A stretch of DNA of 64,000 nt from Candidatus Fervidifonticultor sextus (GTDB lineage Bacteria > Sysuimicrobiota > Sysuimicrobiia > Sysuimicrobiales > Humicultoraceae), in the NCBI GenBank assembly GCA_031459875.1, contig JAVKHQ010000017.1, forward strand, positions 1 through 64,000, given 5' to 3'. Below are positions 14,045 through 56,376 of this stretch, in pieces. The notes under the pieces are model-generated. The model saw only the letters and a program-made list of their open reading frames with translations, had not been told where the DNA came from and did not search any database. How positions within the stretch are numbered: the first letter of the stretch is position 1; each line of letters opens with the position of its first letter. The position numbers were made by a program, and so were the translations under genes.

Positions 14045-14109
14045 TTGACACGCGCGCTCGGTGTGCCTATCGTATTTTTAGACAAAACGCTTGTTTTACT
14101 GAATGAAAC
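14045..14109 (+). promoter_or_regulatory. sigma70-type promoter TTGACA-N17-TATCGT with downstream palindrome GTTTTACTGAATGAAAC (candidate IclR site)
   Basis: Exact -35 at 14045 with 17-nt spacer; AT-rich GTTT-N9-AAAC palindrome 14093-14109 over the IclR start. Confidence 0.65.
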
Positions 14110-14981: not shown

Positions 14982-15047
14982 GAGTCTCCAAGGACAACGG
15001 TGCGCGGAGTTGAGGTGAAGGCGTGCATCCGATGAGGGGGGATAGGA

Positions 15048-16352: not shown

Positions 16353-16371
16353 CCGCCCGTCGCAAAATACC

Positions 16372-19656: not shown

Positions 19657-19661
19657 CAGCT

Positions 19662-20429
19662 ATGGACGAAGCGCGTATGCTGGCTTTAGCTGATCTTACG
19701 ACTTTGGAAGCTGCGAGCGCGTGGCCGCATGTGCGCGGAGCAGTCGTGGCCATTGGCTCTCTTGAGCAGCACGGTCCGAACCTGACGATGGGCGTGGATA
19801 CTGCCATCGCCGACGAGCTGGCTCGGCGTCTGGCCCAACAGTTTTACCCCCGGCTCATCTTGCTCCCGGCGGTGCCCTACGGCGTGTCATACCATCACAT
19901 GGGGTTTACCGGAAGCGTGACGCTGCGTGCCGAGACGCTAGATGCTATCGTGACAGATCTGGCGACCAGCTTGGCCCACCACGGTCTGCGGACGCTGATC
20001 GTCGTGAACGGGCACGGTGGTAACGCGGCACCACTCGTCGCCATTTTTAGCAGGCTGCGGTTCCAGGGGTTCCGTGTAGCAGCTTTGTCCTGGTTCGGCC
20101 TCGCGGGAGACGAAGCAGCCAGGGCGGCGCGATCCCCGCTGTATGGCCATGCCTGCGAGGTCGAGACATCCATCGCTATGGCGGTGACGCCCGAACTGGT
20201 CCGGCGCGAGGCTTTAGCACCTGGAGGTGTTAAGCCGCTGCCCTACCGACATGCCGACATCCGAGGTACCGCGCGTGTCGAGGTCTCGTACCGGTTCGAA
20301 GAACTGACGGAGAACGGTGCGCTCGGTAACGCCCAGATGGCATCGGCAGCGGTGGGGGAGCGGATCATCGCCACCACACTGGATCGCGCGAGATCGTTCT
20401 TGGAAGACTTCCTCAATGCGCAAGGTTAA
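19662..20429 (+). CDS. Creatininase family amidohydrolase
   Basis: GSLEQHGPN, HHMGF.G, NGHGGN, HACEVETS. Confidence 0.9.
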   Translation: MDEARMLALADLTTLEAASAWPHVRGAVVAIGSLEQHGPNLTMGVDTAIADELARRLAQQFYPRLILLPAVPYGVSYHHMGFTGSVTLRAETLDAIVTDLATSLAHHGLRTLIVVNGHGGNAAPLVAIFSRLRFQGFRVAALSWFGLAGDEAARAARSPLYGHACEVETSIAMAVTPELVRREALAPGGVKPLPYRHADIRGTARVEVSYRFEELTENGALGNAQMASAAVGERIIATTLDRARSFLEDFLNAQG

Positions 20430-20442
20430 TCAGGGGGCCATC

Positions 20443-21783
20443 ATGCAGGTGAGCGCGTCAAGCAGCGAGCGTCTGTGGAATCGCGCCCGTAGTGTGCTTC
20501 CGGGCGGGGTTAGCAGCAACATTAAGATGGAGGAGCGACCCCATCCGATGTTCTTCATACATGCGGAGGGTAGTCGGCTGTTCGACTGTGATGGCAATGC
20601 CTATATAGACTACTCGTGCGGCTACGGATCGGTGATTCTAGGACATGGGCACCCGAGCGTTGTAGCCGCACTGCAGGGTGCGGCTGCCCGGGGCTTCAAC
20701 TACGGTGGACAGCATGAGGGTGAGGTGATCCTGGCCGAAAAGCTGGTCTCTCTGGTGCCTTGCATCGAGATGGTCCGATACAACTCTACTGGATCGGAGG
20801 CTGTCGCGGCGGCGATTCGGTTGGCCCGGGCATACACTGGCCGTCCAAAGTTCATACGGTTCTCGGGGCACTATCACGGCTGGCTCGATGAGCAGCTGGT
20901 ATCTGCGCACTTTCCGGTCGACGAAAAGGCCACACCGCGCTTGGAGAGCGCCGGGCAGTGTTCCTCCTCAGCCGACAATGTGTTGGTTGCACCCTGGAAC
21001 GATGCAAGCGCGCTGGAGTGTCTTCTGGAGGCGCACAGTCGCGAGGTGGCTGCGGTGCTCATGGAGCCGATTATGTGCAATGGCGGTGTCATCATGCCGG
21101 TTGAGGGCTACCTCGAGCGCGCCCGCGAGCTGTGCACACGGCACGGGGTCCTTCTGATCTTCGACGAGGTCATCACAGGCTTCCGAGTACATCTGGGCGG
21201 CGCGCAGGCCCTGCTGGGTGTTACCCCTGATCTGGCTGTCTTCGGCAAGGCCATGGCCAACGGGTTTCCCATAAGTTGCGTCGGTGGCCGAAGAGAGATT
21301 ATGAACCAGATTGCCGCCGGGCGTGTGTTCCACGCGGGAACCTTCAATGGGAACCCACTGGGTGTCGCCACAGCGCTGGCGACCGTCGAGGAGCTGTCAC
21401 GGGACAATGGCGCGGCCTACCAACTACTGACCGCCATCGGACGTCGCCTGATGCAGGGCATCAGGGAAGCAGCGGCCGCCAAGGGGGTACCCGTGCTCGT
21501 GCAAGGTCCGGGTCCGGTCTTTTATACGTGGTTTACGCAGGTTGAATCGATTTGGAACTACGAGATCTCGGTGCGTATCAGTCGGGCACCCTACTCTCAG
21601 TTCGCCGCCGCCCTGCTGGCAAACGGTGTACGGGTGATCCCAGGTGGGCGTTGGTATGTGACCTGCAGCCATACCGAGGAAGATGTGGACCGGACCTGCG
21701 AGGCCGTGGAGCGCGCGCTTGAGGTCGTGCGTGTGACCGGTATTGGGCCGGTTTTGGAGGTGGTATCGGGAGGGGGGTCATAA
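20443..21783 (+). CDS. Class III aminotransferase, glutamate-1-semialdehyde aminomutase-like (not canonical HemL)
   Basis: PGGVSSN, GHYHG, FDEVITGFR, FGKAMANGFP, AGTFNGNP. Confidence 0.88.
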   Translation: MQVSASSSERLWNRARSVLPGGVSSNIKMEERPHPMFFIHAEGSRLFDCDGNAYIDYSCGYGSVILGHGHPSVVAALQGAAARGFNYGGQHEGEVILAEKLVSLVPCIEMVRYNSTGSEAVAAAIRLARAYTGRPKFIRFSGHYHGWLDEQLVSAHFPVDEKATPRLESAGQCSSSADNVLVAPWNDASALECLLEAHSREVAAVLMEPIMCNGGVIMPVEGYLERARELCTRHGVLLIFDEVITGFRVHLGGAQALLGVTPDLAVFGKAMANGFPISCVGGRREIMNQIAAGRVFHAGTFNGNPLGVATALATVEELSRDNGAAYQLLTAIGRRLMQGIREAAAAKGVPVLVQGPGPVFYTWFTQVESIWNYEISVRISRAPYSQFAAALLANGVRVIPGGRWYVTCSHTEEDVDRTCEAVERALEVVRVTGIGPVLEVVSGGGS

Positions 21784-23276
21784 TGCGCGTCGCTGTGGGC
21801 GGCATCATGCAGGAGACCAATACATTCTGCGCCCTCCCGACAACCCTCCAGGACTTCGCGCCCTATATACTTCGGGGCGACGCTGTAGTATCTGCTTTTG
21901 AGGGAACCCGGACGCCAGTAGGTGGATTCCTCGATGCCGCCCGGACAGAGGGGTTCACCACGTTGCCAATCTTCTTTGCGAGGGCCGTCTCGAGCGGATT
22001 GACCGAGGCGCACGTTTTTGAGGAGCTGACTGGAGAACTGGTAGGTGCGTTGGAAGCCGTCAAGCCCGTGGACGGCGTCCTCCTGGCACTGCATGGTGCG
22101 ATGGCAGCCGAGGGGATACCGGATGCAGACGGAGAGATCGTCCGACGTGTGAGGGACCTCGTGGGATCCGAACTGCCGATTGCGGTCGAAGTCGACCTCC
22201 ACGCCAATATCAGCACCCGTCTCGTTGAGAGTGTCAACGTCCTGGTCGGCTACGATACGTATCCCCACGTGGATACCTACGAGCGCGGTGTGGAGGCAGG
22301 AACCCTTCTAGCGCGTACCCTGCGGGGGGAGATCCGCCCAGTCCTGGAGATGGCCTCGGCACCCTTATTGTTGGTTCCTCAGATGCAGCAAACCGCCAGG
22401 CCCCCGATGGCTACACTGCTAAGAGAGGCACATCGCCTAGAGACCGAGCCCGGAATGCTGTCAGTAACTGTCGCGGGAGGCTTCTGCTACGCAGATGTAC
22501 CACACGCCGGGTTCTCTGTCGTGGCCATGGCCGACGGCAACCGGGCCCGTGCCGACGCCGCCGCACGGCGCGTGGCTGAAATGGCCTGGACGGTTCGGGA
22601 TGCCTTTGCTGTCCGGAACGTCTCGGTAGCCGATGCGGTAGCTGAAGCCCTGGCTGCTCCTAAGGGGCCCGTCATAATGGTGGATGTTGGGGACAACATC
22701 GGCGGTGGAGGGCCCGGAGACGGTACGGTACTCCTGCAAGCCCTAATGGGAGCTGGCGCCACCGGGGCGGTCGTGACGATTGCGGACGCTGACGCAGTGG
22801 CGGCGGCAGCTGCCGCAGGAGTTGGCAGGCCCGTGCAGACCACCGTCGGAGGCAAGACGGATGTGCGCCACGGATTCCCGGTTCCTGTGGCGGGGAGGGT
22901 CCGCAGCATAGGCGATGGCCGCTACGTCAACAAAGGGTTCTACATGACTGGAGCTCTCGTCGAGACGGGACTTTGCGCGGTCATCGAGGTCGATGGCATT
23001 GAGGTGCTACTCACCGAACGCAGGACTCCCCCCTTTGACCTCGAGCAGCTGCGAACCATGGGCATAGAACCCACGCAACGGCGAATCATCGTGACAAAGG
23101 CGGCCGTCGCTTGGCGCGCTGCCTATGAGTCCATTGCCACAACCATCATCGAGGTAGACACCCCGGGAGTTACCAGCGCAGATCTATCGAGATTCACTTT
23201 TCACCGTGTGCGCAGGCCGATCTACCCGCTCGATCCCTCCGCTCAATACCCTCCAGCTGAATCCTGGCCAGCGTGA
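21783..23276 (+). CDS. M81 family metallopeptidase (MlrC-like)
   Basis: GGIMQETNTF, LHGAM, DLHAN, YPHVD, DNIGGG, RPIYPLD. Confidence 0.93.
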   Translation: MRVAVGGIMQETNTFCALPTTLQDFAPYILRGDAVVSAFEGTRTPVGGFLDAARTEGFTTLPIFFARAVSSGLTEAHVFEELTGELVGALEAVKPVDGVLLALHGAMAAEGIPDADGEIVRRVRDLVGSELPIAVEVDLHANISTRLVESVNVLVGYDTYPHVDTYERGVEAGTLLARTLRGEIRPVLEMASAPLLLVPQMQQTARPPMATLLREAHRLETEPGMLSVTVAGGFCYADVPHAGFSVVAMADGNRARADAAARRVAEMAWTVRDAFAVRNVSVADAVAEALAAPKGPVIMVDVGDNIGGGGPGDGTVLLQALMGAGATGAVVTIADADAVAAAAAAGVGRPVQTTVGGKTDVRHGFPVPVAGRVRSIGDGRYVNKGFYMTGALVETGLCAVIEVDGIEVLLTERRTPPFDLEQLRTMGIEPTQRRIIVTKAAVAWRAAYESIATTIIEVDTPGVTSADLSRFTFHRVRRPIYPLDPSAQYPPAESWPA

Positions 23277-43484: not shown

Positions 43485-44336
43485 ATGAACCCTTCCAGCA
43501 CGCTGTCAGACACCACCCTGTTCGCGCTGGACGTCGCGCGCGAGGCCGCCGACCTGGTCATGAAGATCCTCCCGGCCTCCCGGGCCGACAAGGAGGTCCG
43601 GCGCAAGTCGGCGTCCGACCTCGTCACGCGGGCCGACCACGAGGCGGAGCGCCTCATCGCCGACCGCATCCGCACGCGGTTTCCCGACCACGACCTGCTG
43701 GGCGAAGAAGGAGGCGCGGCGTGGGGGTCTGCAGGGCCTGCGGGTGGGCTGGCGGTCGCCGCGCGGAGGGCGGGGGACCGGCCGCGGTGGATCATCGACC
43801 CCCTCGATGGGACGGCCAACTTCGCGCACGGGATCCCGTGGTTTGGCATCTCGCTCGCGCTGGAAGAGCGCGGGGCCGTGCAGGCGGGAGTCGTCGCCGT
43901 TCCGCCGCTGGGTGAGGTCTTCGTGGCCGAGCGGGGCCGGGGCGCGTTTCAGGTCGGGAAGAACGGCACGCTGATCCGCCTGAATCCCTCCGAGACGGCC
44001 GACCTCGGCGCCGCCCTGGTCGCCACCGGCCTGCCGCGCGAGCCCGAACGCAGCCGTCATGTGCCCACCATCGCCCCGGTGATGCTCCGCGCGCTGGAAG
44101 TGCGAATCATGGGCGCGGCCGCCATCCACCTGGCCTACGTCGCGGCCGGGCGGCTCGACGCCTTCTGGGAGCCCGGACTGGCGCCCTGGGACCTGGCCGC
44201 AGGGCTCCTGCTGGTGGAGGAGGCCGGCGGCCGGATCAGCGACTGGAGCGGGAGGCCGCTGCAGCGCCTGGGCGGCGAGGTGCTGGTCTCCAACGGTCCG
44301 CTGCACCAGGCGATGGTGGACCTGCTGCACCGCTAG
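43485..44336 (+). CDS. suhB: Inositol monophosphatase family protein (SuhB-like)
   Basis: DLVT.AD, GEE, WIIDPLDGTANF, PWDLAAG. Confidence 0.88.
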   Translation: MNPSSTLSDTTLFALDVAREAADLVMKILPASRADKEVRRKSASDLVTRADHEAERLIADRIRTRFPDHDLLGEEGGAAWGSAGPAGGLAVAARRAGDRPRWIIDPLDGTANFAHGIPWFGISLALEERGAVQAGVVAVPPLGEVFVAERGRGAFQVGKNGTLIRLNPSETADLGAALVATGLPREPERSRHVPTIAPVMLRALEVRIMGAAAIHLAYVAAGRLDAFWEPGLAPWDLAAGLLLVEEAGGRISDWSGRPLQRLGGEVLVSNGPLHQAMVDLLHR

Positions 44337-45565
44337 TCGAGCAGCCCGCGGGCGACCGAGGCGAATTGGATCACACCCACGACGGTCAGGACCGCATAGG
44401 CGGCGCCGAACCCGAGCCGCATGGCCGGACTGGGTTCCCCCAGGACCGTGGAGAACAGGCCGGGATCCGAGAGCACAGCCACCCATGCGTGGATCGCCGC
44501 GAGCAGCGGCAGGGCCACCACCACCAGGGCCCACCAGCGTCCGGCCGTGGTCAGGGGGCCTGCGATCCACGAGGGGGTGATGGCGTCGGGATCGGCGGCG
44601 CCCAGCAGACCGCGCAGCAGCAGGATCCTCCGCATGCGCAGCAGCACGGTCAGGGCCAGTCCCGCCGCGACCAGCGGGTAGATGCGGGCCCACGCGTCCG
44701 GGGCCAGGGGAATCCACGCCGTGCGCGCCGTGAACAGCGCGAGCCGCTCACCCTGCTCGCGCTGTCTCGCCGCCAGGATCGCCAGCCGGGCCTGCTGCGC
44801 ATTCCGCCGGCTCCTCAGGCCGACCGCGGCGTCGGCGAGGCTGCGCTCGAGCGAGTGCACGGCTTGATCGAGCGCCGTCGCCACCTGCTCGCTGCGGGCA
44901 GACGCCGCCGCGAACGGGAGGCCGGGACCGTTGAGGCGCTGCCAGAACGCCGGATCCGACGCAAAGGCCTCCCGCAGAACCTCGTTGAGGACCAGGACGT
45001 GGCGGCCGACCCCCCCCTGGGCCGCCCCGAGGGCGTCCTCGATCTCCACAGGAGCGGGCCGCACGCGCCGCAGCGGCTCCAGCGCCGAATCCAGCACCGA
45101 CGCCAGCGCCTCGGTCTGCCGGCCGATCTCCCGGCGGATCGCCTCTTCAACCGTGACGGCTTCGTCTCCACCCTGGCCCGGCGCCCCGCCGGTCCGCGGG
45201 ACCGTGATGGTCGCCTTGTAGGGGTCGGTACCCGAGGCGGCGACGCTGCCGCGGGCGACCAGGTTGCCGATCGCACGCCGGAGTTCGTCCGGCGCGGCGT
45301 CCAGCGCGCGCCGGAACTGGTCCAGCGCCGCGGTCGAGGCGGCCACCGCCTTCTGGGCGTCGTCCGCGGCGGCGATCTGCGCTTCCGTCTGGCTGACCGC
45401 CGCAGCCAGCGCGGGGGCTGCGCTCCGCAACTGCACGAAGGGCAGCAGCACGAACAGGTGCAGATACGCCAGGACGAGCAGGACGGCGGCGAAGAAGAGG
45501 TGAAAGGCCCGCACCTCCGACGCGTAGGCGGCGAGGGTGCGGTCGCGGCCAGAGGTCTTCGTCAC
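44333..45565 (-). CDS. Hypothetical membrane protein (1 N-terminal TM, helical/coiled-coil region, 3 C-terminal TMs)
   Basis: GTG start after GGGGG; hydrophobic segments FHLFFAAVLLVLAYLHLFVLLPF and the C-terminal helices. Confidence 0.65.
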   Translation of the reverse strand: MTKTSGRDRTLAAYASEVRAFHLFFAAVLLVLAYLHLFVLLPFVQLRSAAPALAAAVSQTEAQIAAADDAQKAVAASTAALDQFRRALDAAPDELRRAIGNLVARGSVAASGTDPYKATITVPRTGGAPGQGGDEAVTVEEAIRREIGRQTEALASVLDSALEPLRRVRPAPVEIEDALGAAQGGVGRHVLVLNEVLREAFASDPAFWQRLNGPGLPFAAASARSEQVATALDQAVHSLERSLADAAVGLRSRRNAQQARLAILAARQREQGERLALFTARTAWIPLAPDAWARIYPLVAAGLALTVLLRMRRILLLRGLLGAADPDAITPSWIAGPLTTAGRWWALVVVALPLLAAIHAWVAVLSDPGLFSTVLGEPSPAMRLGFGAAYAVLTVVGVIQFASVARGLLD

Positions 45566-45711
45566 ACGTCCCCCGGGAGGGTGCTCCACGCGCGTGAAGT
45601 TTTGGCTATCGCGGGCGGCGATGCCTGCCTGGAGGGGTGCTGGCGCGGCGCCGCCGCATGGGCGGCAGGCGGGGTAGGGGTCGGGATCCTCCGGGTGCCA
45701 GCCACCTGGCC

Positions 45712-45736
45712 ATAGACCGACGCGTCGGTCTATAAT
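45712..45736 (+). promoter_or_regulatory. Perfect 22-bp palindrome ATAGACCGACGCGTCGGTCTAT overlapping TATAAT, candidate TetR operator
   Basis: Exact inverted repeat 45712-45733; TATAAT 45731-45736 lies 6 nt before the tetR GTG. Confidence 0.85.
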
Positions 45737-45742
45737 GGGGCC

Positions 45743-46348
45743 GTGATGCCGCCAGCGGCGAGGCGCAGCATTGTCGAGTCCAGCACCCGCGAGCGCCTTC
45801 TCCAGGCGGCCATGGATGTCTTCGCCGCACGCGGATACCACGGCACGACGGTGGACGACATCGTGGGTGCCTCGGAGACGTCCAAGGGCGCATTCTACCA
45901 CTACTTCCCAAGCAAGCAGGGCATCTTTTTGAGCCTCCTCGACCGGCTGGCCGAGATGGTCGAATCGAGCGTCGAGGCGGCCATCGGCGCCCGGGAGGGG
46001 GCCCTGGCCAAGGTCGAGGCGGCGCTGCGGGTCGTGCTGGAGGTGGCCTCTGAGCACCGCGACCTCGCCCGCATCCTGCTCATTGAGTCCGCGGCGCTGG
46101 GCCCCGAGTTCGAGGAGAGCCGCATCGGCATTCACCGGCGATTCGCCGCCCTGATCCGGCGCCACCTGGACCGTGCGGTCGCCGAGCGGGCGATCCCTCC
46201 CCAGGACACGCAGACCGCTGCTACGGCCTGGATCGGCGCCATCAACGAGGTCCTCACGCAAGAGCTTGCCCGCGGCGGAGACCTGATGGCCACGCTGCCG
46301 GCGCTGAGGACGCTGCTGCTCCGCAGCATCGGAGCGAAGGCCGAATGA
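45743..46348 (+). CDS. TetR/AcrR family transcriptional regulator heading the men operon
   Basis: TRERLLQAA..VFA..GY..TTVDDI...TSKGAFYHYFPSK; ATGA overlap with menF. Confidence 0.93.
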   Translation: MMPPAARRSIVESSTRERLLQAAMDVFAARGYHGTTVDDIVGASETSKGAFYHYFPSKQGIFLSLLDRLAEMVESSVEAAIGAREGALAKVEAALRVVLEVASEHRDLARILLIESAALGPEFEESRIGIHRRFAALIRRHLDRAVAERAIPPQDTQTAATAWIGAINEVLTQELARGGDLMATLPALRTLLLRSIGAKAE

Positions 46349-47916
46349 CCCCGCGTGATCTGCGATCCCCTGCCGCCGCGGTGTGGCTCGATGATCCCGC
46401 GGCGGGCCTGCACCTGATCGGCCCGCGGCTGCGCCGCGCCGCGGCCGCCGCCCGCCGGCGGGCGGCGGCCCTGCAGCGTCCGGTGGTCGCCTGGACGGGC
46501 GCGCGGGCGCCGCTGATGGACCCGCTGGACCTCCTGGCCCTCGACCCGGTCCGCGCCCACGACCCCGTGCTCTTCGCCCGGCCCGCCGGGTCGTTCAGCC
46601 TCCTCGGGATCGGCAGCGCATGGGGGTTCTCCGGCAGCGGTCCTGATCGCTTCACGCGTGCCCGCCTCGCCTGGGAGGCCCTCGTGGAAGACGCCGTCGG
46701 AGAGGCCGCCGGCGACGATGAGAGCCGCGGCGCCGTGCCGGCCGGGGCGGCGGACGCCTGGGGAGCAGGCCCGGTGCTTGCGGGCGGGTTCTCCTTCGTG
46801 TCCGTGCCCGGTGAAGGACCGCCATGGACGGGGTTCCCTGGAGCGTCGCTGCGGCTCCCGCGCGTGGCCGTGGCCGCCGTCGGAGGTGCGTGTTGGGTCA
46901 CGCTGGCCGTGGTGGCCCGACCCGACGCCTCTACCGCCGTGATCGACGGCGAGGTGGACGCATGCATCCACCTCGTGAAGGCTCTGGTGCACTCCGGCAC
47001 AGATCGGGCCGCCCGCCCCGGTGCATCGTGCGGGAGCCCGCCGCCGGCCGAGATCGTCTGCGAGGAACGCCCGCCGGCCGAGGTCTGGAAGGCCACCGTG
47101 GCCTCGGCTACCCGGGCCGTTAGAAACGGCGCGCTGGAGAAGGTCGTGGTCGCCCGTGCGCTGTGGGTGCGCGGCGGTCCCTTCGACCCCGCAGACACGC
47201 TCCGCCGGCTGCGCGACGGCTATCCCACCTGCACGCTGTTTGCCGTCGTCCGCGACGGACGCTGCTTCCTCGGCGCGACCCCGGAGCGCCTGGTCCGCGT
47301 GTGCGGCGGACAGGTCAGCGCCATGGCCCTGGCGGGATCTGCGCCGCGCGGGGCGACCGAGGACGAGGACCGGCGGCTGGGCGAGATGCTGCTGGCCAGC
47401 CCGAAGGATCGCATCGAGCACGCGGTGGTGGTGGACGCCCTGCGGGATGCGATCGCCGAGATGTGCGGGCAGGTCTCGGTGGCCGCCTCGCCTTCGCTGT
47501 TCAAGGTCGCCAACGTGCAGCACCTCGTCACGCCGATTTCCGCGCGGCGGCAGGACCATACCACGGTGCTGGACCTGGCGGGGCGGATGCATCCCACGCC
47601 GGCGGTCGGTGGCGTCCCCCGCGACGACGCACTGGCGTGGCTGCGCCGGCACGAGGGGCTCGACCGCGGCTGGTACGCGGGACCGGTGGGGTGGATGAAC
47701 CGCAGCGGCGAGGGCGAGTTCGCCGTCGCGATCCGGTGCGCACTGTTGCACCCGGAAGGCGCGACCCTCTTCACCGGGTGTGGGATCGTGGCGGATTCCG
47801 ACCCCGACCAGGAGTACGCGGAATCCTGCCTGAAACTGCGGCCGATGCTGGCGGCCCTGGGGGCGGGGGCGCGTGACCCCGCGCCCTCGGGGGGCCGGGG
47901 GTGGTCCGTGCCGTGA
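46345..47916 (+). CDS. menF: Isochorismate synthase
   Basis: KVVVAR, GATPERL, ALAGS, KDRIEH, HPTPAVGG, DRGWYAG, GCGIV..S...E. Confidence 0.92.
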   Translation: MTPRDLRSPAAAVWLDDPAAGLHLIGPRLRRAAAAARRRAAALQRPVVAWTGARAPLMDPLDLLALDPVRAHDPVLFARPAGSFSLLGIGSAWGFSGSGPDRFTRARLAWEALVEDAVGEAAGDDESRGAVPAGAADAWGAGPVLAGGFSFVSVPGEGPPWTGFPGASLRLPRVAVAAVGGACWVTLAVVARPDASTAVIDGEVDACIHLVKALVHSGTDRAARPGASCGSPPPAEIVCEERPPAEVWKATVASATRAVRNGALEKVVVARALWVRGGPFDPADTLRRLRDGYPTCTLFAVVRDGRCFLGATPERLVRVCGGQVSAMALAGSAPRGATEDEDRRLGEMLLASPKDRIEHAVVVDALRDAIAEMCGQVSVAASPSLFKVANVQHLVTPISARRQDHTTVLDLAGRMHPTPAVGGVPRDDALAWLRRHEGLDRGWYAGPVGWMNRSGEGEFAVAIRCALLHPEGATLFTGCGIVADSDPDQEYAESCLKLRPMLAALGAGARDPAPSGGRGWSVP

Positions 47917-49733
47917 GACCCGAAAACGCCACCTACGCCTATGTCGGCGCCTTCACAGACGAACTGGCGCGCTGCGGGATCAGGCACCTCTGCCTGTGCC
48001 CGGGCTCGCGCTTGACGCCGCTGGCGCTCTGCGCGGCGCGCCACCCCGCCATCAGGGTCTGGACCCTGATCGACGAGCGGTCGGCGGCGTACTTCGCGGT
48101 GGGGATGGCCAAGGCGCTGCGGCTGCCGGTCGCGGTGCTCTCCACCTCCGGCACCGCCGCGGCCAACTTCCTGCCGGCCGTTGTCGAGGCGCGCTACGGC
48201 CGCGTCCCCCTGGTGGTGCTGACGGCTGACCGTCCCCACGAACTGCGGGATGCCGGCGCCCCCCAGACCATCGATCAGATCCGGCTCTACGGCGTGCACG
48301 CCAAGTGGTTCGTGGATGTGGCACCGCCGCAGGCCGCCGAGCCCATGCTGCGCTACGTGCGGGCCCTGGCCGGGCAGGCCGCGGCCATCGCGCAGGATGA
48401 TCCCGCGGGGCCGGTCCACCTGAACTTCCCGTTTCGTGAACCGCTGGTGCCGGTTGCGGCGCCGGAGGAACTCCCGCCGCCGGAGAACCGGGTCGGCGAT
48501 GCCTGGGAAGGTCGGGGAGCCGGGCAGCCATACGCGCGCGCACACGCGGGACGCAGGACGCCGGACGCGGAGACGGCGGCGGTGCTGGCGCGCAGCCTGG
48601 CGCGGGTCGGGCGCGGCCTGATCGTCTGCGGGCCGTATGACGATCCGGCATTTCCGGAAGCCGTCAGCCGTCTGGCCGCGGCGCTGGGGTACCCCGTGCT
48701 GGCCGACCCGCTCTCCCAGGTGCGCTGCGGGCCTCACGACCGGACCCTGGTCGTCGACGCGTACGATCCGCTGCTGCGGGTGGGCGAGGTGGCCGGGATA
48801 CTGGCACCGGAGGTCATCCTCCGCTTCGGCGGCACCCCGGCATCGAAGCCGCTCGTGCAGTACCTGCAGGCGCAGCCGCGCGCGCGACACGTGGTCGTGG
48901 ACGGCGCAGGCGCCTGGCACGATCCCACCCGCCTGGCATCGGAGGTCGTCCACGCCGATCCGGTGGTGCTCTGCCAGGCGGTGGCCGCGCTTCTGGAGTC
49001 CGGCGCCGCGCGCGCATCTGCCGCCCCGGCCTCGGCGTGGACCGCCCGGTGGCTGCGCCTGTCCGGGGAAGCGCGCCTGGCCGTCCAGCAGAGGCTGGGT
49101 GCCGTCTGTGAACCCTTCGAAGGGAAGGTCTTTGCCGAACTGGCCGGACTGCTCTCCGATGGCGTGCTGCTCTATGTGGGCAACAGCATGCCCGTGCGCG
49201 ACCTCGACTCGTTCTTCCCCAGCACGCCCGCGGCGATCCGGTTTCTCGGCAACCGGGGCGCCAGCGGGATCGACGGCCTGGTGTCGTGCGGCCTGGGCGC
49301 CGCGGCCTCGGGCGCCGGCCCCGTGGTGCTGGTCCTCGGCGACCTGGCGTTCTACCACGACCTGAACGGACTGCTGGCCGGAAAACTCCACGGTCTGGCC
49401 GCCACCATCATCCTGCTCAACAACGACGGCGGCGGGATCTTCTCGTTCCTGCCCCAGGCCGGCTACCCCGAGCACTTCGAGGCGCTCTTCGGGACGCCGC
49501 ACGGGCTCGACTTCCGCCACGCCGCCGAGATGTACGGCGCCGGATTTCGCCGTGCAGACACCTGGGAGGACTTCCGCCTCCATGTTCGAGACGCACTGGC
49601 CAGCGGGACGCTCTCGGTCGTCGAGGTGCGCACCCGTCGCGACCGGAACGTCGTGCTGCACCAGGAGGTGTGGGCCGCGGTGCGCGCCGCCGTCTGCGCG
49701 GACCTGGCGGCCGCCTCCGGAAAGGCTCCCTGA
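47913..49733 (+). CDS. menD: SEPHCHC synthase
   Basis: CPGSR.TPL, DERSA, TSGTAAAN, TADRP, GPVHLN.PFREPL, NRGASGIDG, GDL.F.HD.NG. Confidence 0.96.
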   Translation: MRPENATYAYVGAFTDELARCGIRHLCLCPGSRLTPLALCAARHPAIRVWTLIDERSAAYFAVGMAKALRLPVAVLSTSGTAAANFLPAVVEARYGRVPLVVLTADRPHELRDAGAPQTIDQIRLYGVHAKWFVDVAPPQAAEPMLRYVRALAGQAAAIAQDDPAGPVHLNFPFREPLVPVAAPEELPPPENRVGDAWEGRGAGQPYARAHAGRRTPDAETAAVLARSLARVGRGLIVCGPYDDPAFPEAVSRLAAALGYPVLADPLSQVRCGPHDRTLVVDAYDPLLRVGEVAGILAPEVILRFGGTPASKPLVQYLQAQPRARHVVVDGAGAWHDPTRLASEVVHADPVVLCQAVAALLESGAARASAAPASAWTARWLRLSGEARLAVQQRLGAVCEPFEGKVFAELAGLLSDGVLLYVGNSMPVRDLDSFFPSTPAAIRFLGNRGASGIDGLVSCGLGAAASGAGPVVLVLGDLAFYHDLNGLLAGKLHGLAATIILLNNDGGGIFSFLPQAGYPEHFEALFGTPHGLDFRHAAEMYGAGFRRADTWEDFRLHVRDALASGTLSVVEVRTRRDRNVVLHQEVWAAVRAAVCADLAAASGKAP

Positions 49734-50560
49734 TGCCCCGGCTTGTCATCGACGGCGTGGGCATCAACGTGGAGACGGCGGGGAGTGGACCGCCCCTCGT
49801 GCTGCTGCACGGCTTCACCGGCAGCGCGGCCGGATGGGCGTCGGAGGTGGAGGCCTTTGCGCCGTGCCACCTGACGATCGCCGTAGACCTGCTCGGCCAC
49901 GGGCTGTCGGACGCCCCGCCCGACCCGTCCCGCTACGGTCTGGGCTACTGCATCGAGGATGTGCTCGGCGTGCTCGACCGTCTGGGCATCCCCAGGGCCG
50001 CTCTGCTCGGCTACTCGATGGGCGGCCGGGTGGCGCTGGGGGTGGCCATCGCGGCACCGGAGCGTCTGACGGCGCTGATCCTGGAGAGTGTATCGCCCGG
50101 GCTGCGGGATCCCCAGGCCCGCCGCGAGCGGGCGGCCCGGGACGCGGCGCTGGCGGCCCAGATCGAGCGCGACGGGATCGAGGCGTTTGTGGCCCGGTGG
50201 GAGCAGCATCCCCTGTTCGCCAGCCAGGCGCGGCTTTCGGGCGACGTGCGGGCGGCGCTGCGCGACCGGCGGCTGCGCAACACTCCCGTGGGCCTGGCCA
50301 GCAGCCTGCGCGGGCTGGGAATGGGCGCGCAGCCGGCGATGCACGACTTCCTCCCCGACATCCGGGTGCCGACCCTCCTTCTGGCCGGTGCGCTGGACCC
50401 GCAGTACTGCGCGGTGGGCCGGGAGATGGCCGCGCGCATTCCGGGCGCGCGGCTGGAGATCGTGCCGGATGCCGGGCACGCGGTGCACCTGGAGCAGCCC
50501 CAGGCGTTCCGCCGGCTGGTCCTGGAGTTCCTCGCGAAGGTCGGACAGGTCACGCATTGA
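49733..50560 (+). CDS. menH: SHCHC synthase
   Basis: LHGFTG, DLLGHG, GYSMGGR, AGH.VH.E; men-cluster context. Confidence 0.93.
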   Translation: MPRLVIDGVGINVETAGSGPPLVLLHGFTGSAAGWASEVEAFAPCHLTIAVDLLGHGLSDAPPDPSRYGLGYCIEDVLGVLDRLGIPRAALLGYSMGGRVALGVAIAAPERLTALILESVSPGLRDPQARRERAARDAALAAQIERDGIEAFVARWEQHPLFASQARLSGDVRAALRDRRLRNTPVGLASSLRGLGMGAQPAMHDFLPDIRVPTLLLAGALDPQYCAVGREMAARIPGARLEIVPDAGHAVHLEQPQAFRRLVLEFLAKVGQVTH

Positions 50561-50572
50561 GGTGAGCGTCTG

Positions 50573-51403
50573 ATGCGGGTGGCATGGCGGAAGGTCCGCG
50601 AGTACACGGACATCATCTATGAACACGGCGAAGGCGACGCCGGGGGCATCGCGCGGATCACCATCAACCGGCCGGAGGTACGCAACGCCTTCCGGCCCGA
50701 GACGACGATGGAACTGATCGACGCCTTCACGCGTGTCCGCGACGAGGCGGCCGTCGGCGTCGTCCTCCTCACCGGCGCGGGCCACGAGGCGTTCTGCTCG
50801 GGCGGCGACCAGCGGGTGCGCGGCCACGCCGGGTACGTCGGGAAGGACCAGGTCCCCCGGCTCAACGTCCTGGACCTGCAGCGCCTGATCCGGACGCTGC
50901 CGAAGCCCGTGATCGCCGTGGTGGCCGGCTACGCCATCGGCGGCGGGAACGTGCTGGCGACGGTCTGTGACCTGACCATCGCGGCGGAGAACGCCATCTT
51001 CGGCCAGACCGGCCCGAAGGTGGGGTCGTTCGACGCCGGGTACGGCTCGGCCTACCTGGCGCGCATCGTGGGGCACAAGAAGGCGCGGGAGATCTGGTAC
51101 CTGTGCCGGCAGTACACGGCGCAGGAGGCCCTGGCCATGGGGCTGGTCAACGCGGTGGTTCCCCTGGATCGCCTGGAGGAAGAAGCGGTTCGCTGGGCCC
51201 GGGAAATCCTCGAGAAGAGCCCGCTGGCCATCCGCCTGCTGAAGGCGGCGTTCAACGCCGATACCGACGGCCTGGCCGGATTGCAGCAGATCGGCGGCGA
51301 TGCCACGTTGCTGTACTACATGACGGAAGAGGCCAGGGAGGGCCGCGACGCCTTCCTGGAGAAGCGCAAGCCCGACTTTACGAAGTTCCCCCGCTATCCG
51401 TAG
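50573..51403 (+). CDS. menB: 1,4-dihydroxy-2-naphthoyl-CoA synthase
   Basis: [42 protein letters not shown]. Confidence 0.97.
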
Positions 51404-51409
51404 CGTCCC

Positions 51410-52369
51410 ATGCGCAGCGGTCCGACGTCCTTGCGCGGCAGCCCTCGGCCAGGCGCCGCAGGCGCCGCGCCCCGCGGAGCGCGGGACCGATGGCGGCCGT
51501 GGGTGCTGGCCGCCCGCATCCCCACGCTGCCCGCCGCGGTGGCGCCGGTGCTGGTCGGGACCGCGGCGGCGGCGGGCAGCGGGGCGTTCTCGGCCCTCCC
51601 GGCGGTCGCGGCTCTGGTCGCCTCGTTGAGCATCCAGATCGGCACCAACCTGAGCAACGACGCCTACGACTTCCTGCACGGCGCCGACAGGGCGGTGCGT
51701 CTCGGTCCGCCGCGCGCCACCGCCAGCGGCCTGCTCTCACCGAAGGAGGTGCTGACCGGCGCCTATGTGTGCTATGGGGTCGCCGCCCTGGCGGGGCTGT
51801 ACCTGGTGATGCTGCGAGGCTGGCCGATCCTGGCAGCGGGTCTGCTGTCGGTGGCCGCCAGCCTGGCGTACACCGCAGGCCCGTGGCCCCTGGCCTACCG
51901 GGGCCTGGGCGACCTCTTCGTCTTTATCTTCTTTGGGATCATCGGCACGGTCGGCAGCGACTTCGTGCAGACCGGCCTCGTCCGGCCCCAGGCGGTCTGG
52001 GCGTCCGTGGCGGTGGGGTTGCTGACGGTGGCCATCCTGGTGGTGAACAACCTGCGGGACATCGAGACCGACCGCGCGGCCGGGAAGCGCACCCTGGCGG
52101 TGCGGTGGGGCGTGCGTGGCACCCGTCTGGAGTACGCGGGCTGCCTGGCCGGCGCGCTCGCGGTCCCGGGGATCATGCGCGCGGTGGGGGTGCTGGGCGA
52201 CCGGTTCTGGCTGCCCTGGCTGGCGGTGCCACTTGCGGGCGTGCTCGCCCGCACGGTCCTCTGGCGCCTGGATGCGCCGGCGCTCAACCAGGCGCTTGGG
52301 CGCACGGCGCGGCTGCTGCTGCTCTACAGCGCGCTGTTGGCGCTCGCGCTCGTCCTCGGCGGGACATGA
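51410..52369 (+). CDS. menA: DHNA prenyltransferase
   Basis: R..TLPA, QIG.N..ND..DF..G.D, YT.GP.PL.Y.GLG, NNLRDI..D...GK.TLAV. Confidence 0.95.
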   Translation: MRSGPTSLRGSPRPGAAGAAPRGARDRWRPWVLAARIPTLPAAVAPVLVGTAAAAGSGAFSALPAVAALVASLSIQIGTNLSNDAYDFLHGADRAVRLGPPRATASGLLSPKEVLTGAYVCYGVAALAGLYLVMLRGWPILAAGLLSVAASLAYTAGPWPLAYRGLGDLFVFIFFGIIGTVGSDFVQTGLVRPQAVWASVAVGLLTVAILVVNNLRDIETDRAAGKRTLAVRWGVRGTRLEYAGCLAGALAVPGIMRAVGVLGDRFWLPWLAVPLAGVLARTVLWRLDAPALNQALGRTARLLLLYSALLALALVLGGT

Positions 52370-53877
52370 GCGACCGTCCCCCACCCGCCCTCACACCCGA
52401 CTGGCTTGGCCACCGCGCGTCGACCTACCCGGACCGTCCGGCGCTGGTCGCCGGCAGGACCCGCCTGACCTTCCGCGACCTGGACCGCCTGACCCGCAGG
52501 GCCGCCCAGCAACTGGCCGCGCTGGGCGTGGCCGAGGGGATGCGCGTGGCGCTCCTGCTGCCAGGCGGGGTGTCCTTCGCCGTGCTGACCCATGCGCTGG
52601 CGCGGCTGGGGGCCGTTATGGTGCCGCTGAACACGCGGCTGGCGCCTGCCGAGATCGCCTGGCAGGTGACCGACTCGCGGGCCGAGGTGGTGATCGGAGC
52701 CGACGGGATGGCCGATCCGGCCGGCGTCCGCACCGTCGGGCTCGACGCCCTGGCCGCCGCCCCCGACGCTGACGTCCCGCTGCGTGACCGCATCGATCTG
52801 GGCGCCCCTCAGGGGATCATCTACACCTCGGCCACCTCGGGCCGGCCCAAGGGCGTCGTGCTCACCTTCGGCAACCACTGGTGGAATGCCATGGCCTCGG
52901 CGCTCAACCTCGGCCTGCGCCGGGACGACTGCTGGCTGGCGCCGCTGCCGCTCTATCACGTCGGCGGTCTGGCGGTCCTGTGGCGCAGCGTCATCTACGG
53001 CATTCCCGCGGTCGTCCACGAGACCTTCGATCCCGAGGCGGTCAACCGCGAGATCGACGGCGGTCAGGTCACGCTGGTCTCGGTGGTCAGCACGATGCTC
53101 CAGCGCATGCTGGAAGCGCGGCGCGGCCGGCCGTATCCGCCGACCCTCCGGGCCGTCCTGCTCGGCGGCGGACCCGCGCCGCCATCGCTCATCGAGTCGT
53201 GCCTGGAGCAGGGCGTGCCGGTGGCGCCCACCTACGGGCTGACCGAGGCCGCGTCCCAGGTCGCCACGCTGCCGCCCGAACAGGTCGCGGCGCATCGGGG
53301 CTCGTCGGGCAGGGCGCTGTTCCCGGTCGAAGTGCGGATCGCGCCCCCCGGCGCGGCGGCGGACCGCGGCGGCTCCCCCGCGGAACCCGGTCGGGCCGGT
53401 GAGATCCTGGTCCGCGGGCCCACGGTGATGGCCGGGTATGCGGACCGGCCGGAGGAGACCGCGCGCGCCCTGCGCGACGGGTGGCTCCATACGGGCGACC
53501 TGGGCGCTCTGGACGAGGACGGGTACCTCTATGTGCTGGACCGGCGCGACGACCTGATCATCTCGGGCGGCGAGAACGTCTACCCGGCCGAGGTGGAAGC
53601 GGTCCTGGCCAGCCATCCGGCGGTGCTGGACGCCGCGGTCTTCGGCGTCGCCGATGCTGTGTGGGGGGAGCGCGTGGCGGCGGCGGTCAAACTGCGCCCG
53701 GGCGCATCGGTTCGTGAAGATGACGTTCGCGGGTTCTGCGCGGCGCGCCTGGCGCGCTACAAGGTGCCGACGCGGATCTGGGTCGTAGACGACCTGCCGC
53801 GGTCTCCCGCGGGCAAGGTGATGCGCCGGGCGCTGCGCGAGTGGGCCGAGGAGGCTGCGGCGCGGGAGCGATCATGA
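52366..53877 (+). CDS. menE: o-succinylbenzoate-CoA ligase
   Basis: YTSATSG.PKGV, LPLYHVGG, YGLTE..SQ, TGD.G, DRRDDLIISGGEN. Confidence 0.93.
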   Translation: MSDRPPPALTPDWLGHRASTYPDRPALVAGRTRLTFRDLDRLTRRAAQQLAALGVAEGMRVALLLPGGVSFAVLTHALARLGAVMVPLNTRLAPAEIAWQVTDSRAEVVIGADGMADPAGVRTVGLDALAAAPDADVPLRDRIDLGAPQGIIYTSATSGRPKGVVLTFGNHWWNAMASALNLGLRRDDCWLAPLPLYHVGGLAVLWRSVIYGIPAVVHETFDPEAVNREIDGGQVTLVSVVSTMLQRMLEARRGRPYPPTLRAVLLGGGPAPPSLIESCLEQGVPVAPTYGLTEAASQVATLPPEQVAAHRGSSGRALFPVEVRIAPPGAAADRGGSPAEPGRAGEILVRGPTVMAGYADRPEETARALRDGWLHTGDLGALDEDGYLYVLDRRDDLIISGGENVYPAEVEAVLASHPAVLDAAVFGVADAVWGERVAAAVKLRPGASVREDDVRGFCAARLARYKVPTRIWVVDDLPRSPAGKVMRRALREWAEEAAARERS

Positions 53878-54677
53878 GCCGCGATCCCGATCGCGAACCC
53901 GACCCTCGCGGCGCAGTGGACCGCGAGGCGGTCGGCGGCAGAGCCGGCATCCTGGCCGCGCCTCCGTCCGAGCGGCGCCTGTGGGTGCGCGAGGCGTTCC
54001 ACAGCATCGCCGGCCGCTACGACCTGCTCAACACGCTGCTGAGCGGGGGGCTGCACCTCCTCTGGAAGCGCGCGGCGGTTCGTGCGACTGACCTGGCGCC
54101 CGGCGGCGTCCTGGTGGACGTCTGCTGTGGGACCGGGGACCTCCTGGTGCTGGCCTCGCGTCTCCTCGGTCCGGTCGGCCGCACGGTGGGATTGGATTTC
54201 GCGCAGGGCATGCTGGCGGTCGCCTCCAGGCGTCTGCAGGTCGCGCGGCGGGGGGCCCCGGCGCTGCTCGTCTGCGCCGACGCGGAGGCCCTGCCGCTGG
54301 CGGACGCCACTGCCGACGCCGTCGCGTTCGCGTTCGGGCTGCGCAATGTCGCCCACCCGGAGCATGCCACGCGCGAGGCCTGCCGCGTCCTGCGGCCAGG
54401 CGGCCGGCTCGTCGTCCTCGACTTCGGCCGGCCCCCTTCTCCTGCCCTGCGGGTGGTCTACGACCTGTACTCCCGGACGGTGATCCCCAGGCTCGGGGGA
54501 TGGCTCTCGGGCCGGCGAGACGCCTACCAGTACCTCCACGATTCGATCCGGCAGTGGGCCGACCCCGAGACGCTGGCTGAGCTCATGCGTCAGAGCGGGT
54601 TCGACCGGGTGCGCTACCGCCTCCTGACGGGCGGTATCGCCGTGCTGCACGTGGGCGTCAGGCCTACCGGCCGATGA
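53874..54677 (+). CDS. menG: Demethylmenaquinone methyltransferase (UbiE/MenG)
   Basis: F.SIA.RYDLLN..LS.G.H..WK, D.CCGTGD, FGLRNV, AY.YL..SI. Confidence 0.93.
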   Translation: MSRDPDREPDPRGAVDREAVGGRAGILAAPPSERRLWVREAFHSIAGRYDLLNTLLSGGLHLLWKRAAVRATDLAPGGVLVDVCCGTGDLLVLASRLLGPVGRTVGLDFAQGMLAVASRRLQVARRGAPALLVCADAEALPLADATADAVAFAFGLRNVAHPEHATREACRVLRPGGRLVVLDFGRPPSPALRVVYDLYSRTVIPRLGGWLSGRRDAYQYLHDSIRQWADPETLAELMRQSGFDRVRYRLLTGGIAVLHVGVRPTGR

Positions 54678-55227
54678 CTTCGGCCACCTTCAGCCGCCCG
54701 CCGTCTTGCACCAGTTCGACGGTCACGAGGCGGGGCACGATGAACGTGGGCTTGAACCCGGTCCACACCGTCAGGTCCACGCTGGCCCCGCCGCAGCGCA
54801 CCTCGACCCGCTCGAAGCGGGCCTGCTGCAGGTAGGGCGAAAAGATCGCCCGGGCCGGCATCCCCGGATGCTCCAGGGTCTGCGTGTGCTCCCTGGTCGC
54901 CACGCCGGTGAATTCCCGCCAAGAGCGGCGATCCCAGTTCTGGGTCACGACGGCGATGTAGGCCATGGCGGCCTGCCGGGCGTCGTGCTGGTCTGGGCGT
55001 CTGCAGAGCATGCGGCTGCCGGGAAGCAGGAGCAGGAGGATCAAAGCCGCCCCGGCGACTCCCAGCGCCGTGTGCCGGGACGCCGGGTGCGACCGCGATG
55101 GACCCTCGGGCTCCTGGCGGACCACCAGCGTCTGGCAGCCCGAACAGAAGAACGCCTTTCGCGGCCGCAGCAGCGTCCCTTCGGCACCACATCGGGGACA
55201 GCGCACCGGGACGGTCATCCGACTCAC
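54664..55227 (-). CDS. Hypothetical zinc-ribbon membrane protein
   Basis: CPRCG...CSGCQ N-terminus, one TM, small C-terminal domain. Confidence 0.6.
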   Translation of the reverse strand: MSRMTVPVRCPRCGAEGTLLRPRKAFFCSGCQTLVVRQEPEGPSRSHPASRHTALGVAGAALILLLLLPGSRMLCRRPDQHDARQAAMAYIAVVTQNWDRRSWREFTGVATREHTQTLEHPGMPARAIFSPYLQQARFERVEVRCGGASVDLTVWTGFKPTFIVPRLVTVELVQDGGRLKVAEVIGR

Positions 55228-55239
55228 GGCCTCGCCCCA

Positions 55240-56331
55240 TCAGACGGGCAGGATCCGCACCTCCCGCGGCAGCAGGCTGAGTCGCTCGGCCCCCTGCGAG
55301 GTCACCACCACGATCTCCTCCAGCCGGACGCCGAACTCGCCCTCCAGGTAGATGCCGGGTTCGATGCTGAAGGCCATCCCCTCCTGCATGGGCGTCTCGT
55401 TGGTGTGGGTGACAGACGGCGGCTCGTGGCCGGAGATCCCGATCCCGTGCCCGGTGCGGTGGGTGAAGAACGCGCCAAACCCGGCGGCTTCGATCACCCC
55501 GCGCGCCGCCCGGTCCACGGCCGCCAGCGGCTCCCCGGGCTTCACCGCGTCCATGGCCGCCCGGACGGCCCGCTCCACGGCGGTGTGCACCTGGCGGTAG
55601 CGGGGCGAGGGTTCGCCCAGGTGGGCCATGCGGGTGATGTCGGAGGCGTAACCGTCCAGCCGCCCGCCCAGGTCCACCAGGACGGGCTCGCCCGCGCGCA
55701 GTTCCCGGCGGCCCGTCGCATGGTGCGGGTAGGCGGAATTGGGCCCGCCGCCGACGATGACCCCTCCCACCTGCGTCACACCCTGGGCCGCGAACGCATC
55801 GGCTGCGGCGCGCGCCACCGCGGCTTCGGTCACGCCAGGCCGGCACGCGGCAAAGGCGGCATCGACCGCGACATCCGCGGTGGCGGCCGAGCGGCGCATC
55901 AGGTCGATCTCGTCGGCGGTCTTGATCATGCGCACCGGGGCCATCACCTGGGATCCCGGGACGAAGGCGCTGTCCGGCCACTCTGCCTGCAGCAGGAGCA
56001 GGACGTCCGCCCGCATGGTGTCGCCGACGCAGATCCGCCGCGGCCGGCCCAGCCGCGCCCGCGCCTGCCGCAGGGCGTCGGCGGGTCCGTGGGCGTCGGT
56101 GTAGGTGAGGAACGGGACGTCCACGTAGCCGCGGGCCTGGCCGGCGTTCAGTTCCGGCACCAGGAAGACCGCGTCGCCGGCGGTGAGGAACAGGGAGCAG
56201 GGCCGTTCGTCGGGATGCGGGGTGAAGCCGACCAGGTAGAAGAGGTCGTCACCCGGCGGCAGGCTCAACAGGTCCACCCCCGCAGCCTGCATCTGGGCGC
56301 GGACGCGGGTCAGGCGGTCAGGGTGCATCAT
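55240..56331 (-). CDS. Xaa-Pro peptidase family (M24) protein
   Basis: R.IK..DEI, N.AYPHH, D.G...GY.SDITR, HRTGHGIG...HE, SIEPGIY..G.FGVRLE. Confidence 0.94.
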   Translation of the reverse strand: MMHPDRLTRVRAQMQAAGVDLLSLPPGDDLFYLVGFTPHPDERPCSLFLTAGDAVFLVPELNAGQARGYVDVPFLTYTDAHGPADALRQARARLGRPRRICVGDTMRADVLLLLQAEWPDSAFVPGSQVMAPVRMIKTADEIDLMRRSAATADVAVDAAFAACRPGVTEAAVARAAADAFAAQGVTQVGGVIVGGGPNSAYPHHATGRRELRAGEPVLVDLGGRLDGYASDITRMAHLGEPSPRYRQVHTAVERAVRAAMDAVKPGEPLAAVDRAARGVIEAAGFGAFFTHRTGHGIGISGHEPPSVTHTNETPMQEGMAFSIEPGIYLEGEFGVRLEEIVVVTSQGAERLSLLPREVRILPV

Positions 56332-56376
56332 GCGGGTCCTCCTCGATGGCATGCCGTCTGCACAGCCGCCTCCCCC

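Follow-up and report, generated by a model that had tools for sequence, protein, structure and literature searches.

MenR, a predicted TetR-family repressor of menaquinone supply in Candidatus Fervidifonticultor sextus and its relatives

Described regulators and the locus under study

How bacteria set the level of their quinones is an open question. In Bacillus, FapR is encoded by the first gene of the lipid-synthesis operon that it represses, and is released by the precursor malonyl-coenzyme A (CoA). The TetR-family regulators DesT and FabR control biosynthetic fatty-acid genes, and lipid ligands joined to CoA or to acyl carrier protein (ACP) strengthen their binding to DNA. Here we describe a similarly arranged locus for menaquinone (MK) in Candidatus Fervidifonticultor sextus (assembly GCA_031459875.1), located on contig JAVKHQ010000017.1, of which positions 1 to 64,000 of the forward strand (the window) were analysed. 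A palindrome at 45712-45733 precedes a gene for a TetR-family protein, for which we propose the name menR, and seven genes of MK synthesis, menF-D-H-B-A-E-G. The sequence data make it likely that MenR is a repressor dedicated to MK supply and controls the menR-men operon through the palindrome; such an operator-defined, pathway-specific repressor would offer a directly testable handle on quinone control.

MenR resembles FapR in that the repressor gene stands first in a biosynthetic operon, and is predicted to resemble it in negative autoregulation and in having expression set by a pathway metabolite; FapR, however, is not a TetR protein and serves another pathway. DesT and FabR are precedents for end-product feedback by TetR proteins on a membrane-lipid pathway, but their ligands carry CoA or ACP and MK synthesis is not among their targets. 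FadR (YsiA) of B. subtilis and B. halodurans (PDB 1vi0, 3whb/3whc, 5gp9/5gpa/5gpc) has the same fold as MenR (template modelling (TM) score 0.78-0.80), the same Gly and Tyr in the recognition helix, a palindromic operator at a promoter, and autoregulation, which is predicted for MenR. The two differ in sequence (about 22% identity), in operator (GACCGAC..GTCGGTC for MenR versus ATGA(A/G)T repeats for FadR) and in regulon, which is fatty-acid degradation for FadR and would be MK synthesis for MenR.

For the MK pathway itself, two reports describe allosteric feedback of 1,4-dihydroxy-2-naphthoate (DHNA) on MenD, in S. aureus (PMC9835592) and M. tuberculosis (bioRxiv 10.1101/841569), and the global regulators CRP and CcpA are cited as acting on men promoters in PMC12421875. 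These controls share with MenR the aim of quinone homeostasis, but act at the enzyme level or as global factors. The accessible text of PMC12421875, published in 2025, states that the molecular mechanisms setting the quinone level remain elusive, cites only MenD feedback and the global regulators, and mentions no pathway-specific transcription factor. Our literature search, with subscription journals and RegPrecise-type databases outside its reach, found no TetR or other dedicated regulator of men genes or of the mqn genes of the futalosine pathway. The names MenR and MqnR gave no match with menaquinone in the literature searched, and the word menaquinone is absent from two genome papers on CSP1-3/Sysuimicrobiota. 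As far as the literature was searched, MenR appears to be a TetR repressor with an undescribed regulon, and an unusually portable one, attached to MK supply by any route.

The palindrome, its promoter and its footprint in relatives

Positions 45712-45733 form a perfect 22-bp palindrome, ATAGACCGACGCGTCGGTCTAT, which reads ATAGACCGACG followed by CGTCGGTCTAT. A sigma-70 consensus scan of 45300-55300 revealed exactly one promoter-like site, TGGCCA-18-TATAAT at 45707-45736, where 0.3 were expected. Its -35-like hexamer (TGGCCA, 45707-45712, plus strand) is weak, with 4/6 matches, and is separated by an 18-nt spacer from a perfect -10 box (TATAAT, 45731-45736, plus strand). The spacer is taken up by the palindrome, which also covers the first half of the -10 box; the overlap with TATAAT claimed in the original prediction was found to comprise 3 nt of the 3′ arm (45731-45733). 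Since the GTG codon at 45743 lies only 6 nt past the -10 box, and the ATG at 45746 only 9 nt, the menR mRNA is probably leaderless. Among sequencing runs, the stretch 45400-48400 was matched by four DNA runs of one hot-spring study, one of them possibly the source, and no RNA run was listed for it. The congener G005 shares this geometry, with TACAAT at the same place and GTG 6 nt later; the leaderless tetR of the original prediction is thus upheld as to its spacing, from which the leaderless state itself is deduced.

The motif occurs once in the window (0.11 expected at ≤2 mismatches). The genome scan that had been proposed found one perfect copy in 3.05 Mb, the one on the menR promoter; five further sites at ≤2 mismatches are within chance, as a control pattern gave 20. 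A one-mismatch site at C13:645-664 was likewise rejected as a chance match: the conserved GAC beside the centre is altered there, and the control pattern had more matches. A terminator or a repetitive extragenic palindromic (REP)-like element was rejected in view of the position at a promoter and of the invariance of the sequence itself and not of the pairing alone. The 175-bp intergenic region could also serve a divergent open reading frame (ORF) upstream of the promoter (44333-45568, minus strand), whose product has hydrophobic stretches and matches no Pfam family at an expectation value (E) ≤1e-6.

Conservation was followed in 41 genomes of the order (G000-G040, G000 being the present genome; Armatimonadota/CSP1-3 "Sysuimicrobiota"), nearly all of them metagenome-assembled genomes (MAGs). 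The unpublished genomes G013 and G022 are included in the counts; without them the sample is 39 genomes, with 31 instead of 33 tetR-promoter sites, and every conclusion stands; the locus L011, among those read here, is from G022. A TetR ortholog was found in 40/41 genomes (best E ≤1e-40), the one without a match being G029, with a completeness of 72%. Orthologs from families f1 and f2 and from a single f4 genome (G038) show 62-94% identity, and the rest 43-53%. This exceeds the identity of MenF, which is 43-56% in the same f1 loci, the congener (88%) apart.

The palindrome or a variant of it is present at the promoter of the tetR ortholog in all 40 genomes that have one, so that the phylogenetic footprinting suggested for tetR-menF loci, extended to all tetR orthologs, gave 40/40. 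Searching with the strict pattern AGACCGACNNGTCGGTCT at ≤1 mismatch yielded 39 sites in 34/41 genomes: 33 directly upstream of a tetR ortholog, three before unlinked menF operons and three intragenic. The three intragenic sites, two in G014 and one in G028, each with one mismatch, were set aside as chance matches, lying inside ORFs with no MK gene adjacent. At the seven orthologs that the strict pattern did not detect, variants stand in the same place, for example GACTGAC-TG-GTCAGTC, and the family motif is therefore GACYGACNNGTCRGTC, a 16-bp core that corresponds to 45715-45730 in the window. Conservation among the relatives is confined to an inner stretch of 18-20 bp, (T)AGACCGACGCGTCGGTCT(A) (45713-45732 in the window), and the outer A/T pair varies; the perfect 22-bp operator of the original prediction is thus real at this locus, but its full length is not a conserved feature.

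In nearly all relatives a promoter of the form TTGACn-17/18-TAnnnT ends 6-8 nt before the 16-bp core (in a few, 2-14 nt), and the site therefore covers the transcription start. Only in the present genome and in its congener G005 does the -10 box lie inside the 3′ arm of the operator. Two geometries around one invariant sequence, both of which should be equally repressive, are what would be predicted for a protein-binding site and not for a structural RNA or DNA element. In genus g8 (G012, L014:1498-2337, and G020, L015) the TetR reading frame extends well beyond the usual end, and the operator is about 200 nt upstream of its start.

The neighbourhood was read for 39/40 orthologs (all but that of G013), two of these ending at a contig end. 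Twenty of the 40 orthologs are directly followed by menF and one by menA. Ten are followed by genes for an NMT1/SsuA-like binding protein, an ATP-binding cassette (ABC) ATPase and a permease; menA comes next in all seven of these loci that reach far enough, with menG after it in two (G025 and G031), and three of the ten end at contig ends. Futalosine genes come after two orthologs: in G030 these are mqnE and one PF02621 gene, and in G026 mqnP-mqnL-mqnE-PF02621-mqnC-PF02621. In G007, G023 and G038 a men operon is present from which tetR is unlinked, and in all three a second perfect palindrome was found shortly after a promoter that precedes the separate menF-D-(H)-B-A-E-G operon. The monocistronic tetR of G007 (L130:3097-4975) adjoins the convergent M24 peptidase gene known from the window, where it stands after menG (54677-56352), and the whole men operon is on another contig with its own copy of the operator; it looks as though the men operon was relocated and carried an operator copy along. 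That the operator tracks the men genes where tetR is unlinked supports the dedicated in-operon TetR regulator, acting on the men operon through the palindrome, that had been predicted.

To look beyond the order, a scan with one genome per species was used, which returned 80 loci: the 36 closest (L045-L080) and 44 with more distant TetR proteins (L081-L124). The closest loci of all are from Armatimonadota/CSP1-3 MAGs (Candidatus Sysuimicrobiota at NCBI), including Ca. Fervidifonticultor secundus. Homologs of 35-55% identity were found in Chloroflexota (Anaerolineales, Ktedonobacterales, Dehalococcoidia and Thermoflexus), in Rokubacteria/Methylomirabilota, in a MAG named Ca. Acidoferrum and in Bacillota. 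Men or mqn genes are present in 27/36 close loci, ABC genes only in 2/36 and neither in 7/36; in the control, a men/mqn-like match occurred in 1/44 distant-TetR loci and was a 32% identical acyl-CoA ligase. The association is thus not unique to this genome, as it would be if the original prediction were wrong, but extends over the whole order and into other phyla.

The motif was present exactly once at ≤1 mismatch in 28/36 close loci. In 23 of these it stands upstream of the tetR match, at a distance of 15-118 nt from its start. The remaining five, all from Rokubacteria/Methylomirabilota/Acidoferrum MAGs (L051:4387-8851, L053, L057, L058 and L076), have it 20-70 nt upstream of mqnE and some 3.5-3.9 kb away from tetR: the operator precedes mqnE-PF02621-mqnC, and tetR is at the far end of the cluster, past a divergent PF02621 gene, with no motif at ≤1 mismatch before tetR itself. 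At the Thermoflexus hugenholtzii locus (L080), which has a homolog, the motif is in front of mqnP. A quick IQ-TREE analysis of 85 rows, from which L007, L011, L015, L016, L029 and L047 as well as all matches shorter than 150 residues were left out, separated a clade of 70 rows, of which 58 are MK-linked, from an outgroup of 15 TetRs without any MK-linked member; the Shimodaira-Hasegawa-like approximate likelihood ratio test (SH-aLRT) value was 97. On this evidence the conservation of MenR would extend from hot-spring Armatimonadota/CSP1-3 as far as Chloroflexota and Methylomirabilota, with attachment to either of two unrelated MK pathways.

Two further arrangements were observed. In a Dehalococcoidia chromosome (L065:8989-15270) and in L067, L070, L072, L059 and L062, the genes after the homolog are mqnL (UbiD-like), mqnP, one that is UbiX-like, and those for an SsuA-like binding protein and an ABC transporter; these Dehalococcoidia and other Chloroflexota loci combine the late steps of the futalosine pathway with a transporter, and the early mqn genes are missing from the locus. 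In family f4 and two Bacillota MAGs (L037:1443-2694 of G027, L038, L042, L044, L077 and L078) the operator variant AGACYGACYRGTCAGTCT is kept with no MK genes beside tetR. The tetR gene of G027 precedes a pyrE-like phosphoribosyltransferase gene and, beyond it, a suf operon; in L077 the gene after tetR has a weak match to a phosphoribosyltransferase domain.

The mechanism that we propose is as follows. A MenR dimer, or a pair of dimers, would bind the 18-20-bp palindrome and, because this site occupies both spacer and -10 box, would keep RNA polymerase off the single promoter. One mRNA, probably leaderless, would carry menR-menF-D-H-B-A-E-G; since tetR and the seven men genes would share this transcript, MenR would throttle itself and the whole pathway together, a negative autoregulation. 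A small molecule would alter the affinity of MenR for DNA, the sequence being compatible with either an inducer or a co-repressor.

Several observations weigh against this proposal. The relatives share ancestry, and the counts given above are of non-independent events. Matches to the motif are not above chance in number per genome (the control pattern gave 0-3 per genome); what is beyond chance is the perfection and position of the motif sites. Four of the 40 orthologs (G007, G027, G032 and G035) have no adjacent MK gene, and in the last three tetR is followed by pyrE-like and suf genes. The 70-row clade contains subgroups without MK neighbours, namely a Bacillota group and the f4 plus two Bacillota MAGs with a phosphoribosyltransferase gene after tetR. 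Since these four order orthologs and six Bacillota homologs have no adjacent MK gene, the MenR clade is not exclusively MK-linked. End-product co-repression is, to our knowledge, unusual for TetR proteins. The consensus scan, which found no promoter-like site within the operon and hence not the internal menF promoter that would have contradicted the original prediction, could have missed weak or non-sigma-70 promoters. Finally, menC is outside the cluster: the sole candidate in the genome, at G000:C45:106149-107114 (L131), scored 338.4 bits with TIGR01928 (cut-off 200.65), a model whose family also includes racemases, and no operator was found upstream of it at ≤2 mismatches. One step of the pathway seems therefore to be outside the regulon.

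The signal that MenR may sense

MenR has the sequence and structural features of the TetR family. A PF00440 helix-turn-helix domain was found at residues 19-64, the AlphaFold2 (AF2) model has nine helices in the two-domain TetR fold (predicted local distance difference test (pLDDT) 92.7), and the palindrome on its own or an adjacent promoter, here and in relatives, has the character of a TetR-family operator. Foldseek returned 457 PDB matches at E ≤0.001, with TetR proteins only at the head of the list; the nearest folds are EthR, EthR2, FadR and FasR (TM 0.78-0.80, about 21% identity), which have long lipid tunnels. As a generic TetR result, this search points to no ligand. The top NCBIfam match, to the ScbR-type gamma-butyrolactone receptors, was rejected (NF041196, 64.8 bits versus a cut-off of 150), as was thiol-based quinone sensing of the QsrR/YodB type, no Cys being among the invariant or nearly invariant columns.

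In a profile search the best solved relatives were the FadR proteins of B. subtilis and B. halodurans (E about 1e-23 to 7e-23), and the DNA-reading residues G49 and Y52 of MenR match Gly42 and Tyr45 of B. halodurans FadR. MenR scored only 48.5 bits with the FadR/YsiA model NF053878, however, against an equivalog cut-off of 200. The FadR box, described in PMC5397183 as inverted repeats of ATGA(A/G)T, is not present in the operator, which is AGACCGACGCGTCGGTCT. The same source gives Arg116, Asn120, Arg150, Arg153, Glu162 and Tyr174 as the residues of B. subtilis FadR that anchor CoA. In an alignment at about 22% identity, and hence weak, only Glu162 of the six has a conserved counterpart (E169); the position of Arg150 is variable and that of Arg153 is occupied by Ala. 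Therefore, given a score below the equivalog cut-off, a different operator and missing CoA anchors, MenR is a TetR-family member and not a FadR.

Residues R127, D155, T156, W163 and E169 of the ligand domain are invariant or nearly so across the men, mqn and ABC-menA contexts, and this near-invariance in three contexts suggests one ligand class common to all MK routes. In eight genomes (G006, G016, G021, G025, G031, G034, G037 and G040) MenR is 64-70% identical and, with an identical operator, heads the ABC(-menA) cluster; menA follows in the five of these loci long enough to show it. MenD, MenB and MqnA were not found in these genomes, which are 91-97% complete and mostly MAGs, in which a gene not found may still be present. 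The repressor and operator were seen at the head of genes for the NMT1/SsuA-like binding protein, the ABC ATPase, the permease and MenA in L025:1460-6836 (G025), L026, L027, L031, L032, L128, L129, L048 and L049. The ABC-menA(-menG) cluster looks like a device for taking up a naphthoate head group from outside and prenylating it, i.e. DHNA auxotrophy with salvage. Co-regulation of the ABC transporter would point to such salvage, and this in turn to cross-feeding of quinones in uncultured communities.

For the ligand we favour, at somewhat less than an even chance, a lipophilic prenylated compound, either (demethyl)menaquinone/menaquinol or a polyprenyl diphosphate. The naphthoate head group comes next, as a possible but doubtful candidate; a CoA thioester is unlikely, and other ligands take up the remainder of our estimate. 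The broader picture can be offered only tentatively. MenR may be a direct sensor, a 'quinone-stat', of the prenylated quinone pool or of the polyprenyl-diphosphate co-substrate in at least four named phyla or candidate phyla, tying three non-homologous routes (men, mqn, and uptake with prenylation) to one signal via one operator. The NMT1/SsuA-like ABC transporter would in that case be a head-group importer and many carriers would be head-group auxotrophs. The ligand of MenR would reveal what cells actually sense, and MenR with its operator could be used as a biosensor in vitamin K2 engineering.

The alternative that survives best, although we think it rather improbable, is DHNA, or its 6-carboxy isomer in futalosine organisms, acting as a classical TetR inducer: the free head group would release MenR, so that MenA, MenG and the uptake genes would use up an intermediate that is toxic and redox-active. 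Induction by a substrate is the most common mode of TetR control, and DHNA is the substrate common to the full men operon and the ABC-menA-menG clusters. In the full operon, however, DHNA as inducer would drive its own synthesis in a positive loop, and the ligand-domain residues are conserved even though the isomer made by futalosine organisms is a different one; the nearest folds, a weaker argument, have long lipid tunnels and not small aromatic pockets. Both the toxicity of DHNA and its feedback on MenD are documented (PMC12421875 and PMC9835592).

Binding of o-succinylbenzoate (OSB)-CoA or DHNA-CoA, in the way that FadR binds acyl-CoA, is improbable. The nearest solved relatives by sequence are indeed the acyl-CoA sensors FadR, and MenE and MenB of the operon make these two thioesters. 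Against this, the repressor and its identical operator persist in the eight genomes where MenD and MenB were not found, and orthologs head mqn operons, which make no such thioesters; the lack of conservation at five of the six CoA anchors (weakly aligned) and the low score with the FadR equivalog model argue in the same direction. Of the ligands named in the original prediction, the two thioesters are thus disfavoured, and DHNA and a quinone stay in the running. Least probable by far, and already strained, is that the TetR protein only autoregulates, as many TetR proteins do, or controls an unrelated function, with the men genes transcribed independently and their adjacency accidental: some clade members do lack an MK gene alongside, but second operators stand on the promoters of unlinked menF operons in 3/3 genomes and on mqnE promoters at five loci of other phyla, tetR and menF overlap by 4 nt with no internal promoter-like site in the consensus scan, and MK genes accompany 27/36 close loci versus 1/44 control loci.

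Genes of the operon and neighbouring features

Downstream of the palindrome the plus-strand order is tetR-menF-D-H-B-A-E-G, with junctions of -4, -16, -1, +12, +6, -4 and -4 nt; the predicted linkage by overlaps or by gaps of 12 nt or less was thus borne out. The genes were identified by NCBIfam and Pfam profiles, and all seven Men proteins scored above the curated NCBIfam cut-offs. The first gene, menR (45743..46348, plus strand, with its start at GTG 45743 or ATG 45746), encodes a 201-aa protein that scored 62.9 bits with PF00440 (cut-off 24) and 38.4 bits with TetR_C_24. The ATG of menF overlaps the tetR stop codon (ATGA). This gene (46345..47916, plus strand), for isochorismate synthase, matched TIGR00543 with 323.9 bits (224.75), the figure in brackets here and below being the cut-off.

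The remaining genes, all on the plus strand, are menD (47901..49733), for 2-succinyl-5-enolpyruvyl-6-hydroxy-3-cyclohexene-1-carboxylate (SEPHCHC) synthase, TIGR00173, 453.7 bits (244.2); menH (49733..50560), for 2-succinyl-6-hydroxy-2,4-cyclohexadiene-1-carboxylate (SHCHC) synthase, TIGR03695, 251.8 bits (208.55); menB (50573..51403), for DHNA-CoA synthase, NF005637, 487.4 bits (380); menA (51410..52369), for DHNA polyprenyltransferase, NF004751, 310.8 bits (264); menE (52366..53877), for o-succinylbenzoate-CoA ligase, TIGR01923, 411 bits (330.15); and menG/ubiE (53874..54677), for demethylmenaquinone methyltransferase, TIGR01934, 225.2 bits (158.35), the last gene of the operon, with an alternative GTG start at 53841. 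PF02621, of the futalosine pathway, was not found in the genome. The next gene, on the minus strand and convergent with the operon, encodes the Peptidase_M24 protein (55240..56352). The G + C content is 0.60-0.62 at 14001-22000, versus about 0.70 in the rest of the window.

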